From Acidimicrobiales bacterium (GTDB taxonomy: Bacteria; Actinomycetota; Acidimicrobiia; Acidimicrobiales; UBA8190): 64,000 nt of DNA. Location: positions 135 to 64,134 of the forward strand of contig DATKSG010000014.1 in the NCBI GenBank assembly GCA_035531775.1, written 5' to 3'. Below are positions 35,121 to 41,565 of this stretch, piece by piece. The notes under the pieces are model-generated. The model had not been told where the DNA came from. It was given only the letters and a program-made list of their open reading frames with translations, and made no database searches. The position numbers and the translations under genes were made by a program. Positions within the stretch are counted from its first letter, which is position 1. Every line of letters starts with the position of its first letter.

Positions 35121-35240
35121 ATGGCGGTGACGGTGCTGGCTCTTGTCGGAGTGCTCGTCATTGCCGCCGTGCTCGTGACCTTCTCCATGAGCCTCTTCGC
35201 CCGCGACCGCGGACAGCGCCACCCTCGGTCGCGTCGGTGA
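35121..35240 (+). CDS. Small single-TM membrane peptide (37-39 aa), absent from the ORF track
   Basis: ORF (MA)VTVLALVGVLVIAAVLVTFSMSLFARDRGQRHPRSRR. GAGGAGG lies at 35114-35120, so GTG 35127 has better spacing than ATG 35121. Its stop overlaps the next start (GTGA). Confidence 0.45.
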   Translation: MAVTVLALVGVLVIAAVLVTFSMSLFARDRGQRHPRSRR

Positions 35241-35686
35241 CCGGCCCGGTGGGCATCGGCGGTGCGCCACCCGAGTCCGAGCTGGGGAGGCCCCCGGTCG
35301 GGGCCGAGGAGGCCTTGGCCGGGGCCTATCTGCTCCCCGAGGACGAACGAGGTGAGGTTCTGGCCGAAGTGGTTCGTCGGTACCCGCAGTGGCCCACCGC
35401 TTGGGCTGCGCTGGCCACCTCGGCGTCAGGTGACGTGGAGGCGTATGCGTACTACCGCGTCGGCTATCACCGCGGGCTCGATGCCCTTCGTAAAGCGGGT
35501 TGGCGCGGCAGCGGCTACGTGCGCTGGTCACGACCGGCCAACCGGGGGTTCTTGCGTTGCGTCGAGGGGCTACGCCGCACGGCACACGCCATCGGCGAGC
35601 TCGACGAGGAGGAGCGTTGCGCACTCTTCCTGCGCCAGCTCGACCCGACGTGGTCGGGGGCCGAGGTCACCGGCGACGACAGGTGA
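35237..35686 (+). CDS. DUF3151-like conserved actinobacterial protein
   Basis: The sequence (YPQWPTAWAALA, AYAYYRVGYHRGLDALRKAGWRGSGYVRW, NRGFLRC) matches my recollection of DUF3151. Confidence 0.65.
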   Translation: MTGPVGIGGAPPESELGRPPVGAEEALAGAYLLPEDERGEVLAEVVRRYPQWPTAWAALATSASGDVEAYAYYRVGYHRGLDALRKAGWRGSGYVRWSRPANRGFLRCVEGLRRTAHAIGELDEEERCALFLRQLDPTWSGAEVTGDDR

Positions 35687-36735: not shown

Positions 36736-36966
36736 TCAGGCCTCGGTGGGCCTCGGCCGCAGGTCGATGCGGAGTGTGAGGATGCCGTCGGCCAAGGTGG
36801 CTTCGGCGTCGCCGATCATGGCGAAGTCCATGAAGTCGGCTTGGGCCTGCTCGGCGAAGCGACGGCGTTCGGGCCCTTCGACAGGCGGCAGCCCCCGGTC
36901 GCGCACGGCCGCCGCCCGTTCTCGGAAGCGGCCCACCATGGATTGGGGATCGAACTCGTCGGGCAC
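36736..36966 (-). CDS. Hypothetical small protein (76 aa)
   Basis: The ORF has TACAGT (minus strand, 36974-36979) 7 nt upstream of GTG 36966, consistent with a leaderless start. No family recognised. Confidence 0.4.
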   Translation of the reverse strand: MPDEFDPQSMVGRFRERAAAVRDRGLPPVEGPERRRFAEQAQADFMDFAMIGDAEATLADGILTLRIDLRPRPTEA

Positions 36967-37088: not shown

Positions 37089-37298
37089 GTGAAAAAGGGA
37101 CGGCATCGCCGCTTCGAGGAGGCTCGCAGCCTCAAGAGATCGGTGGCAACGGCCAATCGTCGCTGCCCGGAATGTGGCGCCGAGCCTGATGACCGGCACG
37201 CGTCGTGGTGCATGGCCGAGTCGGAGGAATTCGACGAGATCCTCGGTGTGACGCCGGATTCCGAGGTCGTGGACGAAGACGACCCGCTGGCTGACTGA
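37089..37298 (+). CDS. Hypothetical small protein (69 aa): basic N-terminus, CPEC...H...C motif, acidic C-terminus
   Basis: GTG 37089 is preceded by GGAGGA with 7-nt spacing. The sequence is MKKGRHRRFEEAR...CPECGAEPDDRHASWC...DEDDPLAD. Confidence 0.5.
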   Translation: MKKGRHRRFEEARSLKRSVATANRRCPECGAEPDDRHASWCMAESEEFDEILGVTPDSEVVDEDDPLAD

Positions 37299-37325: not shown

Positions 37326-38177
37326 TCAGCGCCGCCTGACGGCCGGGTGGGGAAGTGCCACTGGACGGAGGTCGTCGCTCCTGGCCCCGGTCGAGGCCGG
37401 CGTGGTCATGACAATGGCCCGAGCCGACAGGTAACGCGCCAGCTTCTTGTAGATCTTGGCCCCGACCAGTGCCACCAACTCGTCGCGCATCTCCTCGAAC
37501 ACCGGCCGCCCACCGACAAAGGCGTCGGGCGCCTCGGTACACCACCAGTGGAACTCGGCTCCTCCGGCTCCCCAGTCCCGGCGGTCCCACTGGCGAATGA
37601 CCGACTTCACGTGCCCGTCGTCAGCCACCTCGTCTTCGCGGCGCAGGGGGAGCTGCCAGCACACGTCGGGCTTGAGCTCGAGCGGGGCGGTGCCACGCTC
37701 GAGGGCGGCACGGTGCAAGGCGCACCCCGGGCCGCCTGGGAAGTCAGGACGGTTCAGGAAGATGCAGGCCCCGTCGGCCAAGCGGGTGGTGAGCTCGCCG
37801 GCCGCGTTCTTCTTGAAGATGCGAAGACGCCGGCCTTCGGTGGGCTGGCCCTTGCGCCAGAACTGCCACTGGTCCGGGGTCAAGGTGGCTGCCGCCTTCT
37901 CGACGCGCTTGGTGTCCTTGCCTCCGGTCATGTGGGCGCCGTAGGAGCAGCACCCGTGGACCAGCTCGGGGGCCGGGCCTGTGAGTACTCCCTGGCAGCC
38001 CCGCCCGAAGATACAGGTCCAGTTGCTCTCGAGGAAGGTCACGTCGAAGAGCCAAGTCCGCTCCTCGACGGGGTCGGGAAAGCTCACCCATTCGTGAGCT
38101 CCACCGGGGGCGCCGTTCCACGACGCGGCCGACGGATCGTGGCCGTTGGTCAGCATGCGGATTGGAGCGGTAGTCAT
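37326..38177 (-). CDS. Cysteine-rich conserved hypothetical protein (putative metal/Fe-S cluster binding)
   Basis: Eight Cys in the motifs WTCIFGRGCQG, HGCCSYGAH, GACIFLNRP, GPGCALH, VCWQLP and WWCTE. AGGAGG precedes ATG 38177, which overlaps the radical SAM stop (ATGA). Confidence 0.7.
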   Translation of the reverse strand: MTTAPIRMLTNGHDPSAASWNGAPGGAHEWVSFPDPVEERTWLFDVTFLESNWTCIFGRGCQGVLTGPAPELVHGCCSYGAHMTGGKDTKRVEKAAATLTPDQWQFWRKGQPTEGRRLRIFKKNAAGELTTRLADGACIFLNRPDFPGGPGCALHRAALERGTAPLELKPDVCWQLPLRREDEVADDGHVKSVIRQWDRRDWGAGGAEFHWWCTEAPDAFVGGRPVFEEMRDELVALVGAKIYKKLARYLSARAIVMTTPASTGARSDDLRPVALPHPAVRRR

Positions 38178-39640
38178 CGTCCTCCTGTGGGCGTCGGCGC
38201 CGGGTGCGCTTGGAGCCGGGCCGAGTCGAGCTGCGCCGAGGTCGGCTCGGCGCAACAGAACCACGCCTCGGACAGACGTGGACGCTCATCGGGCGCAATC
38301 TGGGAGCGTAGGTCGGGATCCGACTGGGGTGGTGCTTCGGCGCGGTCGTGTATGTCGAGCAGTCGCCATGCCTCGGCCCGTACGGCGCGGTAGGCAGCCA
38401 TGTCGTCCCACGACTCGGCGTCGGCCAGCTGGGCCAAGGCCACGAGCCTCTGTTGCAGCACATCGAGGCGCCCATCGGTTGAAGTCCATTCCCAGCCCAG
38501 GTGCTCGGGGTCATACGGGCCCAGCAATCCGTCGAGGTCACCGCTATCGAGCAACAGCGACCCGGGCGGGACGAGCAGACGGATGGTGAACTGCACTGGG
38601 TCGACATTGCCGATTAGGTCGCAGTGAGCCACCAGGTCGAGCAAGTCGAGCAGGTCGCCGGCCGTCGTCCACGGAGTGAAGGGCAGCAGCGAGGGCCGGG
38701 GCTCGATGCCGGCGCTGCGCAGCACCTTGACGGCCTCGATCTCCTCGGCCACCGTGTGGCCCTTGTCGAGCCGGCGCAGCACGTCGTCGTTGGCCGACTC
38801 GAAGGCCGACACCACGAACAGGCAGCCGGCCCCGGCCATGGCCGGCCAGATCTCGGGGTGGGCCAGGATGTGCTCCACCTTGGCCGTGATGTCGAAGGTG
38901 AGGTCAGGGAAGGCCTGGTGTACGGCGTCGATCACCCGCCGGGCATGGTGTGGCCCGTTCAGGAAGTCGGGGTCGCCGAAGGTGAGGTGCTCGGCCCCCA
39001 TCCCCACGAGCTGGGCCACGTCGGCCAGCACCGACTCCACCTCGACCAATCGGGTGCGGCCGTTGTAGACCACCGGGACCGGGCAGTGACGGCAGCGATG
39101 CGCACACCCGTGGCTGGCCTCCACGTAACCGGCCATCCGGCTTTCGGAGCCCATGAGCAGACGGCTGTAGCGCTCGAGCGGCGGCAGCGACTTGCGGGCC
39201 GGCAAGCCGAATCGCTGGCGCCCGAGGTGAACCACAGTCGGGCCGACCTGGACGCGTCGTCGCTGCTCACTCGGGTCACCGAACCATGCCAACAGGCCCG
39301 GCTCGTACTCCCCGGCGATGGCCATGTCGGCCACGTGGGCCCCGTGGGCCCCGTCGTCGAGGCCGGCATAGAGACCGTAGAAGCACACGGCCAGGTCCGG
39401 GCGAAGGGTGCGAATGTGGGCGCAGGCTTGACGGGCCAGCCGCATGGCCGTGTGCATGGGCACCGACACGGCCACGGCGTGAGCCCACTGCACGTCTTCG
39501 GGCCGGAGGGTGTCCACCGACAGGTCGACGCAGCGGACATCGTGGCCGGCGCGCTGTAAGGCTCCAGCCGGACCGGCTACGTGCAGGGGTTGGTGCCCCA
39601 GCTCGTAGGTGGAGAGCAGCAAGGCGCGCACCGATCCCAC
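38174..39640 (-). CDS. B12-binding-domain radical SAM protein with C-terminal CCAEP motif
   Basis: N-terminal Rossmann-like (B12-binding-type) region, CX3CX2C cluster motif (GCAHRCRHC), and WFCCAEPT at 38243-38263 located 22 aa from the C-terminus. Confidence 0.85.
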   Translation of the reverse strand: MGSVRALLLSTYELGHQPLHVAGPAGALQRAGHDVRCVDLSVDTLRPEDVQWAHAVAVSVPMHTAMRLARQACAHIRTLRPDLAVCFYGLYAGLDDGAHGAHVADMAIAGEYEPGLLAWFGDPSEQRRRVQVGPTVVHLGRQRFGLPARKSLPPLERYSRLLMGSESRMAGYVEASHGCAHRCRHCPVPVVYNGRTRLVEVESVLADVAQLVGMGAEHLTFGDPDFLNGPHHARRVIDAVHQAFPDLTFDITAKVEHILAHPEIWPAMAGAGCLFVVSAFESANDDVLRRLDKGHTVAEEIEAVKVLRSAGIEPRPSLLPFTPWTTAGDLLDLLDLVAHCDLIGNVDPVQFTIRLLVPPGSLLLDSGDLDGLLGPYDPEHLGWEWTSTDGRLDVLQQRLVALAQLADAESWDDMAAYRAVRAEAWRLLDIHDRAEAPPQSDPDLRSQIAPDERPRLSEAWFCCAEPTSAQLDSARLQAHPAPTPTGGR

Positions 39641-39671
39641 CGTAGCGGCCGGCGCCGCCGACTTCGACGAC

Positions 39672-40967
39672 TCAGGTTTCGGTCGGGTCGACGCGCACGT
39701 CGATACAGGCCCAGGCGCGGCGTAGCGCCTGCTCGACGTCTTCGGGCCTGTCGCCAGAGGCGAAGACGAACGCCAGGTACCGGTTTCCCTCGGGGACCGG
39801 CGCCACAGCGCGCCCGAGGGCGATCGTAACTTCGAAGTCGGTGATGCCAGGCACGGCCAGGGCCCGGTCGCGCCCGTCTACGCCCCGCAGGATCCCGGCG
39901 CGGGGAATGGGGACCATTAGCACGCCGGCGGCACCGGCCCGGCGATCGAGGTCGCCGAGCTCGATGCCGAGGGCTTCGGCGATCACGAGCTCTTCGAGGC
40001 TGCGACCGGCCCCGAAGGCCAAGGTACGGGCGCACAGCCCACCGATGGTCCTGGCCGCCACCTCGATGACCGACGCCCGTCCCTGGTGCACGCGCACCTC
40101 GGCGTGGATCGGCCCTTGGCGCAGGCCGAGGGCCCTGGTGGCCGCCCCGACCGCTGAATGGGCGGCGGCCAGGTCGCCCGCCCCCAATCGGGACGGAGTC
40201 ACGTAGATGGTCTCCTCGAAGGCCGGCCCGTCGAGGGGATCGGGCTTGTCGAACACGGCCAGCACACGCAGCTCGCCGTCGTGCAACATGCCCTCCACGG
40301 CCACCTCCGGCCCTGGGACGAACCGCTCGACCAGGAGGGGCGCCGACGGGTCCACGCCGGCGGCCGAGGCGATGCGCCTGCTCCGGGCGACCGCCGCCAC
40401 CAGGGCTCCGGCGTCGTCGGCCCGAAGGACCCCCTGGCTGCCGGACAAGGTGGCCGGCTTCACCACGCATGGGTAGCCCACGAGCGCTCCGAGCCGAGCG
40501 ACGTCGTCGGGCCCGGCCTCCGCCGCCAAGGCGCCAAAGGGTGGCTGGGAGATCTCGGCTTCATGCAGCCGGGCCCGCATGGCCAGCTTGTCCCGGGCGG
40601 CGGCCACCGCGCCGGGCGGGTTGTGACGCAGGCCCAGACGCAGCGACGCCTCGGCCGCAACCGCCGTGGCCTGGTCGTCCACGGCCACCACGGCGTCGAT
40701 GGGGACGATGGCGTCGTGGGCCACGATGGCCTCCGCCCCGGCGGTGGCGTCGTCGAGTGGTACTTCGAGGCTGCGGCCGCCCATCAAGCCGGCCAAGGCG
40801 TGGGCCTGTTCGGTGCCCACCACCACCTCGACGCCGAGGGCCGTGGCGGCATCGAGGAAGTCGTCGGCCCGATAGGTAGACGAGGGGACGAGGAGGAGCA
40901 GCCGGGCCACCCTCCTATGATGGCTGGCGGGAGGTCCGACCATGGCAGAGTCCGTGCTCAACGTCAC
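39672..40967 (-). CDS. ATP-grasp domain protein (carboxylate-amine ligase-like)
   Basis: A pre-ATP-grasp strand (RLLLLVPSS), then KLAMRARL...GYPCVVKPATLSGSQGV...LVERFVPGPEVAVEG...IHAEV, typical of the ATP-grasp fold. The start is uncertain (GTG 40967, ATG 40943 or GTG 40910). Confidence 0.8.
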   Translation of the reverse strand: MTLSTDSAMVGPPASHHRRVARLLLLVPSSTYRADDFLDAATALGVEVVVGTEQAHALAGLMGGRSLEVPLDDATAGAEAIVAHDAIVPIDAVVAVDDQATAVAAEASLRLGLRHNPPGAVAAARDKLAMRARLHEAEISQPPFGALAAEAGPDDVARLGALVGYPCVVKPATLSGSQGVLRADDAGALVAAVARSRRIASAAGVDPSAPLLVERFVPGPEVAVEGMLHDGELRVLAVFDKPDPLDGPAFEETIYVTPSRLGAGDLAAAHSAVGAATRALGLRQGPIHAEVRVHQGRASVIEVAARTIGGLCARTLAFGAGRSLEELVIAEALGIELGDLDRRAGAAGVLMVPIPRAGILRGVDGRDRALAVPGITDFEVTIALGRAVAPVPEGNRYLAFVFASGDRPEDVEQALRRAWACIDVRVDPTET

Positions 40968-41565
40968 ACCGTCGGCGCGCAGCGTCGTCGTCGAGGCGCG
41001 AGCCGAGGAAGGCGACGCCGAGCGTCTCGCGCTGTGGGTGGAGGTGACCGGGGCCAGCGCCGGCTCCTACACCTACGACATCTACTTCCAAGCGGCGTCC
41101 GACGCTGGGGCGGGGGATGCGGTGGACCAAGCCGCCGAACTGACAGTCGTCGTCCCCGAGGCCAGCGTGGCCCGCCTCCGCGGCGCCCGGCTGGACTGGT
41201 CCGACGACGGTGAGGGTGGCCTCGTCATCCTCAATCCGAACACGCCGCCGAGGCCCGAGACCAGCGCCGTTCCCACCGGGGACCTGACCAGCGACCTGGC
41301 CCAACGGATCCTGGCCGTCCTCGAGGAGCAGGTGAACCCCTCCATCGCCTCCCATGGTGGCCGGGCCGACCTGGTGGCGGTGGAGGACGGCACCGCCTAT
41401 CTCCGCTTGAGCGGCGGATGCCAGGGCTGCGGGTTGGCCAAGGTGACCTTGTCGCAGGGCATCGAGGTGGCCTTGCGCGACTCGGTGCCCGAGCTCGTCT
41501 CGGTCGTGGACGTCACCGACCACGCCAGCGGTGACAACCCCTACTTCGAAGCAGCGAAGAAGTAA
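40942..41565 (+). CDS. Nfu/NifU-type Fe-S cluster carrier (NfuA-like: degenerate A-type N-domain + Nfu C-domain)
   Basis: The C-domain carries IASHGGRADLV...LRLSGGCQGCGLAKVTLSQGIE (CxxC). SD GGGAGG lies 7 nt upstream of ATG 40942. Confidence 0.8.
   Translation: MAESVLNVTPSARSVVVEARAEEGDAERLALWVEVTGASAGSYTYDIYFQAASDAGAGDAVDQAAELTVVVPEASVARLRGARLDWSDDGEGGLVILNPNTPPRPETSAVPTGDLTSDLAQRILAVLEEQVNPSIASHGGRADLVAVEDGTAYLRLSGGCQGCGLAKVTLSQGIEVALRDSVPELVSVVDVTDHASGDNPYFEAAKK

Follow-up and report, generated by a model that had tools for sequence, protein, structure and literature searches.

The window considered here, 64,000 nucleotides of high-GC (~70%) DNA from an Acidimicrobiales bacterium (assembly GCA_035531775.1, contig DATKSG010000014.1, positions 135 to 64,134), carries three tightly packed minus-strand genes encoding an ATP-grasp ligase, a radical S-adenosylmethionine (SAM) enzyme with a WFCCAEP tail and a protein with eight cysteines; a gene for an Nfu-type iron-sulfur carrier lies divergent from them. 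Comparison across genomes reveals that the unit shared by different phyla of soil bacteria consists of Nfu, the ligase and the radical SAM enzyme, and that the eight-cysteine gene is a lineage-specific, translationally coupled add-on. The module probably makes a small molecule. The radical SAM family has already been named; what we propose as new is that tail-assisted chemistry of the type of ArsL, an enzyme of arsinothricin biosynthesis, is coupled to an amino-acid ligase. Proteins identical to those of the window were found in Acidimicrobiales metagenome-assembled genomes.

Conserved gene unit

An earlier note on this DNA, drawn from its letters alone, described the three minus-strand genes as a self-contained trio inserted between housekeeping blocks. 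In a scan that represented each GTDB species by a single genome, at least 579 relatives of the radical SAM enzyme were confirmed, the best 80 loci of which (L001-L080; Acidimicrobiales, Solirubrobacterales/Thermoleophilia, Gaiellaceae and Chloroflexota) were analysed. Neighbours were counted starting from the radical SAM loci, with the loci having enough flank as denominators. The ATP-grasp gene lies directly upstream on the same strand in 54 of 63 loci, and Nfu is divergent beside the ATP-grasp gene in 55 of 62. The gene for the eight-cysteine protein, which carries the label PF11307, is found downstream of the radical SAM gene in 14 of 68 loci, all 14 being among the closest Acidimicrobiales relatives. 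When all open reading frames (ORFs) of four reference loci were compared, Nfu, the ATP-grasp gene and the radical SAM gene alone were conserved across the 80 loci. The trio therefore stands in part: the ligase travels with the radical SAM enzyme, in several gene orders and beyond the bounds of one class or phylum, but the cysteine-rich gene accompanies it in close Acidimicrobiales relatives only, and the third conserved partner is Nfu.

The supposed insertion is not borne out. The GC content of the operon is no different from that of its flanks, and the order aroC-pilD-Nfu|ATP-grasp-radical SAM-PF11307 ... flavin reductase-DUF3151-tyrS is syntenic across the Acidimicrobiales, so the cluster is not a recent arrival.

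A scan of metagenomes that started from the Thermomicrobium roseum homologue yielded 80 loci of a more distant branch, the radical SAM enzymes of which are 40-48% identical to that of the window. Two arrangements recur in this branch. In the first, the genes for the radical SAM enzyme, a NifU-domain protein, a DUF169 protein and the ATP-grasp ligase, or subsets of these, follow one another in that order on one strand (L092, L098, L115, L117, L128, L134, L137, L138, L143, L161 and L162). In the second, the gene for YggX, an Fe2+-trafficking/oxidative-damage-protection protein (PF04362, 2.2e-37; NF003817, 138 bits), is directly upstream of the radical SAM gene in 29 loci, its stop codon overlapping the radical SAM start in most of them, and a convergent ATP-grasp gene follows downstream in three of the 29. 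The Chloroflexota among the best 80 loci have yet another layout, DUF169-Nfu divergent from ATP-grasp-radical SAM. With several gene orders represented, the radical SAM enzyme, the L-amino-acid-ligase-type enzyme and the NifU-domain protein are linked independently of gene order. The theme common to the partners is iron-sulfur and redox handling, DUF169 and YggX being the frequent further ones.

DUF169 (PF02596) adjoins the radical SAM, Nfu or ATP-grasp gene in at least three gene orders (copies at L042:5278-5958, L058:2789-3505, L115:8789-9487, L161:6700-7395 and others). The copies linked to the radical SAM gene have in common four invariant cysteines, an Asp-His (DH) pair and a histidine, a pattern suggestive of a site for a metal or a cluster. 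At the YggX loci, which fall within L088-L151 (e.g., L089:6681-7004 and L120:6678-7010), a gene with a formyltransferase domain is usually divergent upstream. A gene for a DsrE/DsrF-like protein of 128 amino acids is convergent just after the radical SAM gene in L031 (9476-9859, minus strand) and in 20 other Solirubrobacterales loci; its DsrE-like match is full-length at 21.1 bits, below the cutoff of 22.7.

Radical SAM enzyme

The radical SAM gene occupies positions 38174-39640 on the minus strand (longest ORF 488 amino acids) and encodes the cysteine form of the CUAEP/CCAEP family. The product scored 556.7 bits against NCBIfam model NF040546 (CUAEP/CCAEP-tail radical SAM (seleno)protein; cutoff 500), its residues 7-472 aligning to model positions 2-467 of 468, and matched the Pfam domain Radical_SAM (PF04055) at 2.1e-17. 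The earlier note had pointed to this family, and the score together with the C[C/U]AEP and CX3CX2C motifs upholds the assignment. The latter motif (GCAHRCRHC; positions 39083-39106, minus strand, as read from the translation) comprises C179, C183 and C186 and would bind the SAM-cleaving [4Fe-4S] cluster; its cysteines are shared with ArsL. These three residues and the tail pair C462 and C463 are the only invariant cysteines in an alignment of 22 homologues.

The N-terminal domain had been taken for a Rossmann-like domain of the B12-binding type. In terms of fold this agrees with the AlphaFold2 model (mean predicted local distance difference test score (pLDDT) 81.3), for which the Foldseek neighbours OxsB, AprD4, TsrM, MgmA, MiaB and TokK share a Rossmann-like N-domain with a radical SAM core; the Pfam B12-binding match (PF02310), on the other hand, stops at 22.0 bits, short of the cutoff of 32.1. 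Two of these neighbours, AprD4 and MiaB, are not known to be cobalamin-dependent, in contrast to the B12 enzymes OxsB, TsrM, TokK and MgmA. Because the Pfam match is below threshold while the predicted fold resembles Rossmann-like N-domains, "B12-binding" is used here as a label for a fold and not as evidence for a cofactor. For the reactions of ArsL, the available portion of Yao et al. (bioRxiv 10.1101/2024.02.01.577332) lists enzyme, SAM and dithionite, cobalamin not being among them.

ArsL is the closest and the only characterised relative. The Pseudomonas amygdali enzyme is 33% identical over residues 4-355, and the two proteins have in common the Rossmann-like N-domain, the CX3CX2C core and a cysteine-bearing C-terminal tail with a CC pair. 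An additional segment of ~60 residues precedes the tail in the window enzyme, the partners of which are an ATP-grasp ligase and iron-sulfur carriers. This nearest sister family of ArsL is much more widespread, being present in at least 579 species genomes and often as a selenoprotein. Haft and Gwadz (2022) described the structure and function of the CUAEP/CCAEP family as "not well known." In agreement with the earlier note, which knew of no assigned function, our literature search on the family found that mention only, as uncharacterised; the wider search (CUAEP, CCAEP, DUF169, and ACP radical with ATP-grasp, where ACP is 3-amino-3-carboxypropyl) returned no characterisation of the radical SAM family and no paper describing the module.

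C-terminal tail and selenocysteine

The WFCCAEP motif near the C-terminus, located at 38243-38263 (minus strand) as first reported, spans residues 460-466 of 488 and contains the vicinal pair Cys462-Cys463; after the T of WFCCAEPT there are 21 more residues. In the 22-homologue alignment the motif does not vary, and WFC[C/U]AEP is almost invariant among the relatives together with an upstream RPRLTE segment. The codon for the second tail cysteine is either TGY or TGA. At position 463 TGA, specifying selenocysteine (Sec), was present in 31 of 78 genome loci and in 66 of 79 metagenome loci, or ~60% of those examined, and beyond it the conserved AEPTEGQFGPL runs on in frame. The close Acidimicrobiales relatives that we examined, the window included, all have the cysteine form; L039 and L080, also labelled Acidimicrobiia but more distant, have TGA.

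The Sec forms (L019-L149, e.g., L020:1684-1725) possess a 7-bp hairpin 15 nt past the UGA with an AGUU-containing loop (AGUUN). Across these forms 88% of the cells at the paired positions are indeed paired, and 77 double-change cells were counted where shuffled alignments gave 28.7±5.8; controls in which the hairpin was slid along the alignment were all far lower. From this covariation and its position we consider the hairpin to be a bacterial selenocysteine insertion sequence (SECIS)-like element. The natural interchange of Sec and Cys argues that position 463 is chemically active, whether it serves as nucleophile, as redox centre or as soft-atom ligand.

In Thermomicrobium roseum DSM 5159 the radical SAM locus (L081:8932-10440) is on the megaplasmid NC_011961, on which a search found no ATP-grasp orthologue. 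The RefSeq coding sequence WP_012643191 ends there at the Sec UGA (…ESWFC*), and the frame goes on AEPLEDPSGPVASQVRMVDQPLR; the entry is apparently a selenoprotein annotated too short, so that in RefSeq at least one Sec form is cut off at its UGA.

Vicinal Cys-Cys or Cys-Sec arms are also present at the C-terminus of MerA and of thioredoxin reductase. The radical SAM tail resembles these arms, as well as the CU motifs of SaoL and HgcA (Haft 2022), in having adjacent Cys-Cys/Sec residues near the C-terminus and in the interchange of Sec and Cys; it differs in that it is borne by a radical SAM scaffold and that the motif is ~10-25 residues from the end, within a highly conserved segment. Its role may be ligand hand-off or that of a redox shuttle.

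ATP-grasp ligase and Nfu

The first gene of the operon (39672-40967, minus strand) has a longest ORF of 431 amino acids, in keeping with the ~430-residue ATP-grasp ligase first proposed, and its product has the full domain set of the L-amino acid ligases: ATP-grasp_4 (PF13535, 8.7e-28), LAL_C2 (PF18603, 1.7e-17) and ATPgrasp_N (PF18130, 9.2e-8), each match exceeding its cutoff. Among homologues of solved structure the L-amino acid ligase BL00235 (3VOT; 1.6e-27, full-length) ranks first, with BacD next. BL00235 makes Met-Gly and Met-Met (PMC6920838). We predict that the window enzyme is likewise of the L-amino-acid-ligase type. It shares its architecture with BL00235, BacD, DdaF, RizA and TabS, and enzymes of this kind often ligate unusual amino acids that their neighbouring genes supply; it differs in reaching no NCBIfam equivalog cutoff (BacD, 43 bits versus 850; DdaF, 24.6 versus 840) and in belonging to a separate clade made up of the ATP-grasp copies linked to radical SAM genes, which are 44-71% identical to one another.

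The divergent gene (40942-41565, plus strand) had been called an Nfu-type iron-sulfur carrier, and this holds. Its product matches Pfam NifU at 5.5e-20 over residues 125-189, including CQGC, with weak ErpA-type matches over residues 4-101, and scores 98.6 bits against TIGR03341 (NfuA), below the equivalog cutoff of 269. It is best described as NfuA-like, with an A-type-carrier-like N-domain and a NifU domain, and not as an equivalog. In Escherichia coli NfuA services the radical SAM enzymes LipA and MiaB. That protein, too, combines an A-type-like N-domain with a NifU C-domain carrying CxxC, as does the product of the gene adjoining the radical SAM operon here; the difference lies in the score of the window protein and in the client relationship, which for the window is suggested by gene order alone. 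In other lineages the NifU domain stands by itself or is fused to Nfu_N.

Eight-cysteine protein

The third gene (37326-38177, minus strand, within an ORF of 37326-38264) encodes 283 amino acids from the ATG at 38177. From this start the protein contains exactly eight cysteines, all invariant in 35 homologues. The number agrees with the earlier note; the first motif is C-x5-C (CIFGRGC) and not C-x6-C as had been written there. A resemblance to the YkgJ-type CxxCxxCC proteins could not be confirmed: the actual pattern is C-x5-C-x14-CC, and no match to PF03692 was obtained. An hhalign comparison of the homologue alignment with E. coli YkgJ gave a probability of 0.07%, the template being a single sequence and the sensitivity low.

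Precomputed tables label the window protein and all 120 listed homologues PF11307 (Rv0495c family), whereas our own Pfam-A scan gave no match even at E <= 10, so that two Pfam resources disagree. Local searches of Pfam, NCBIfam, PHROGs and PDB sequences with this protein returned nothing usable, and the AlphaFold2 model is poor (pLDDT 57.7, with the cysteine-rich loops below 50). Deletion of Rv0495c in Mycobacterium tuberculosis raises reactive oxygen species, the NAD+/NADH ratio and the sensitivity to free iron (bioRxiv 10.1101/2023.08.22.554105). Rv0495c is similar in length to the window protein and connected to it through the precomputed PF11307 label; it is characterised by this deletion phenotype only. 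No paper mentioning PF11307 was found in the literature search.

Homologues were also detected by tblastn in Gordonia phages, at 31-33% identity over ~80% of the length. They comprise L163 (Gordonia phage GMA6, 73830-74732) and homologues in a further 12 records of Gordonia phages, annotated as hypothetical and lying among genes of unknown function. The same search gave no match in Cellulophaga or Vibrio phages. Hutinet (2023) placed the phage methyltransferase DpdM in "DUF3109," related to YkgJ; a link from DpdM to the eight-cysteine protein is not relied on here, the equation of PF11307 with a former DUF3109 being unconfirmed.

The start of the third gene is embedded in the end of the second. 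At the junction (38174-38186, minus strand) an AGGAGGA ribosome-binding site at 38186-38180 lies within the last radical SAM codons, the 3′ end of the gene reading ...ACAGGAGGACGATGA, and the ATG at 38177-38175 overlaps the radical SAM stop codon TGA at 38176-38174 (ATGA). Among the Acidimicrobiales homologues the conserved GGR/GGK C-terminus of the radical SAM enzyme coincides with this AGGAGGA site, and ATGA, GTGA or TGATG junctions recur in L001, L003, L007, L011 and L044. We conclude from this arrangement that the two genes are most likely translationally coupled.

Whether the third protein belongs to the pathway is a separate question. It is quite possible, at a little short of an even chance, that it is merely co-transcribed with a two-gene core in the Acidimicrobiales and has a redox or iron-homeostasis role of its own: its gene follows the radical SAM gene in so few loci, other lineages have DUF169 or nothing in that slot, homologues reside in phages, and deletion of the family namesake raises reactive oxygen species and free-iron sensitivity. 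Set against this are the ribosome-binding site inside the radical SAM gene and the recurrent ATGA overlap in relatives, which argue for stoichiometric co-expression, and the fact that DUF169, another cysteine-rich protein, takes up this slot in other lineages and so hints at a comparable accessory role.

Proposed function and alternatives

According to two preprints (bioRxiv 10.1101/2024.02.01.577332; 10.64898/2026.04.29.721666), ArsL cleaves SAM to methylthioadenosine and an ACP radical. This radical is joined to arsenite held by three tail cysteines, and the cleavage is considered unique to ArsL among canonical radical SAM enzymes (10.64898/2026.04.29.721666). For the window module we tentatively propose, at clearly less than even probability, that a carbon-heteroatom bond is formed with the assistance of the tail and that the resulting amino acid is condensed by the ligase, with Nfu maintaining the cluster; every chemical step of this scheme we infer by analogy. 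The radical SAM enzyme would work as ArsL does. The vicinal Cys-Cys pair (Cys-Sec in many relatives), situated on a C-terminal arm, would hold a thiophilic atom or group, sulfur or selenium being likelier than arsenic because of the neighbouring genes, and would offer it to the SAM-derived radical. Formation of the carbon-heteroatom bond would give a methionine-like gamma-substituted 2-aminobutyrate, which the ligase would condense with a second amino acid or an amine. Nfu, or YggX in other lineages, would load, repair or protect an oxygen-labile or consumed cluster, while the PF11307 protein here and DUF169 elsewhere would be cysteine-rich metalloprotein accessories acting as electron donor, carrier or tailoring enzyme. 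In T. roseum the radical SAM gene has a pyridoxal phosphate-dependent aminotransferase and a major facilitator superfamily (MFS) transporter as neighbours, which would fit an amino-acid-like product.

Several observations weigh against this proposal. The window enzyme lies outside ArsL itself by score (253.5 bits with the ArsL model NF040542, the second-best NCBIfam model, under a cutoff of 450), by its tail, where WFC[C/U]AEP supplies two ligands in place of the three arsenic-binding cysteines of RCCLKC, and by context, there being no arsM, arsQ, arsN or ars operon at the locus, in contrast to arsQML of arsinothricin biosynthesis and to the P. amygdali ars locus; across the 80 best loci the vicinity of the radical SAM gene has no conserved ars, methyltransferase or exporter gene. 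At 33% identity the regiochemistry of SAM cleavage need not carry over. In the distant branch the ATP-grasp gene is within the flanks in only 18 of 80 loci, so the ligase may be dispensable or may have its gene at another site. Finally, the adjacency of Nfu or YggX could simply reflect the care of an oxygen-labile cluster in aerobes and is silent on the product.

A more specific version of the tail-assisted scheme, which we regard as quite improbable in its details, would have the module of Acidimicrobiia, Thermoleophilia and Chloroflexota turn an amino acid into a metabolite that contains sulfur or selenium, such as a dipeptide low-molecular-weight thiol or a cofactor of redox or iron homeostasis. 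The CC/CU-tail enzyme would then be a second canonical radical SAM enzyme with ACP radical chemistry, and the C-S or C-Se bond would be formed on a tail-bound persulfide or perselenide replenished via Nfu, YggX and DsrE-like partners. In either form, the recurrent partners (amino-acid ligase, NifU-domain carriers, YggX and DUF169) give what was only a family name a pathway hypothesis that can be tested, and Nfu, the ATP-grasp ligase and the radical SAM enzyme, with or without a DUF169 or PF11307 gene, are a set that points to joint study. Such work might uncover carbon-heteroatom bond chemistry that is new, or a redox metabolite not yet recognised, in soil lineages that are abundant but little studied.

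The chemistry might instead be that of a 5′-deoxyadenosyl radical, an unlikely though not far-fetched alternative. The radical SAM enzyme would abstract hydrogen from an amino acid or dipeptide made by the ligase and insert sulfur (or selenium), its source being either a cluster that is sacrificed or a persulfide carried by the CC/CU tail, in the manner of LipA, BioB and MiaB, to give a thiol-bearing redox metabolite, and Nfu or YggX would rebuild the cluster. Consistent with this, the enzyme repeatedly, and in independent gene orders, adjoins genes for iron-sulfur or sulfur handling (NfuA-like in the 55 of 62 loci, YggX in 29 and DsrE-like in 21 Solirubrobacterales loci), MiaB is one of its structural neighbours as well as one of the E. 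coli NfuA clients named above, and the redox and free-iron phenotype of Rv0495c belongs to the family of the third gene. The five invariant cysteines, however, leave no conserved triad for an auxiliary cluster, ArsL works without 5′-deoxyadenosyl chemistry, and the DsrE-like match is below threshold and its gene convergent.

Two further alternatives are very unlikely. In one the module organifies or detoxifies a metal(loid) strictly as ArsL does, the tail binding As(III), Sb(III), Hg(II) or similar to yield an organometal(loid) amino acid, which the ligase masks or builds into a Trojan-horse dipeptide; homology to ArsL together with the CC tail of the enzyme, the occurrence of CU motifs otherwise in mercury- or organometallic-handling proteins (Haft 2022), the dipeptide antimetabolites made by L-amino acid ligases such as BacD, and ATP-binding cassette or MFS transporter genes near some loci would all accord with this. 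Against it, no ars, mer or methyltransferase gene is conserved in 160 loci, the position is syntenic in the Acidimicrobiales core genome, the tail offers two ligands and not three, and the recurrent partners are iron-sulfur proteins, not resistance proteins. The other, in which the target of modification is a ribosomal peptide or else some housekeeping protein (Nfu, the enzyme's own tail or the cysteine-rich partner being candidates), finds some encouragement in the ATP-grasp and radical SAM pairs known from clusters for peptides made on the ribosome and modified after translation (RiPPs) and in the extreme conservation of the RPRLTE-WFC[C/U]AEP region, but the LAL_C2 domain of the ligase is that of enzymes joining free amino acids, and its architecture is not of the graspetide type, a self-modifying enzyme would turn over once only, and no small ORF is conserved in or beside the module in the 160 loci, the internal gaps being 31-40 nt and an overlap. 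A RiPP or graspetide precursor was rejected as a candidate on that last ground, in line with the earlier remark that no substrate gene is obvious.

Operon layout and neighbouring genes

The three minus-strand ORFs, the 31-nt gap and the ATGA overlap were found where they had been described, and the third-codon-position GC of all three (0.84-0.88) is usual for coding sequence here. The start of the ATP-grasp gene is ambiguous between GTG 40967, ATG 40943 and GTG 40910; public gene callers choose the last, which gives 412 amino acids. For the radical SAM gene the second GTG at 39631 (485 amino acids) is the likelier start because homologues begin MRALLLS. Accordingly, 31 nt separate the ATP-grasp stop from the radical SAM start if the longest ORF is taken, and 40 nt if the likelier GTG is. 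The eight-cysteine gene appears to be the last of the operon, since a convergent small ORF starts 28 nt past its stop.

The ATG of Nfu (40942) and the candidate ATG of the ATP-grasp gene (40943) share a CCATGG palindrome, and the 5′ ends of the two genes abut or overlap (40908-40967); with GTG 40910 as the ATP-grasp start they are 31 nt apart. Either arrangement would imply leaderless transcripts or promoters within the opposite gene. A scan for promoters and terminators gave nothing above expectation. Nearly all genes between 33062 and 62707 of the window are on the plus strand, and the ATP-grasp-radical SAM-PF11307 operon is a minus-strand block inside this region.

Two small ORFs, 36736-36966 (minus strand) and 37089-37298 (plus strand), separate the flavin reductase gene from the operon. 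Their products have 76 amino acids in one case and, in the other, 69 with a zinc-ribbon-like CPECG…WC; both are strongly conserved and specific to the Acidimicrobiales, and gene callers predict ORFs of 67-69 amino acids at 36.7-37.3 kb. Neither has a significant match in Pfam or Rfam, where weak ones below threshold were the only hits. The conserved stretch at 36.7-37.3 kb was also considered as a non-coding RNA, and this was discarded: Rfam gave nothing at gathering thresholds and weak matches at chance level, and the stretch corresponds to the two small ORFs.

The DUF3151 gene, at 35237-35686 in the window, is directly downstream of the radical SAM gene in L037 (9356-9841) and ~1.4 kb downstream in L075 (3848-4249), and may represent a weak further association with the module.

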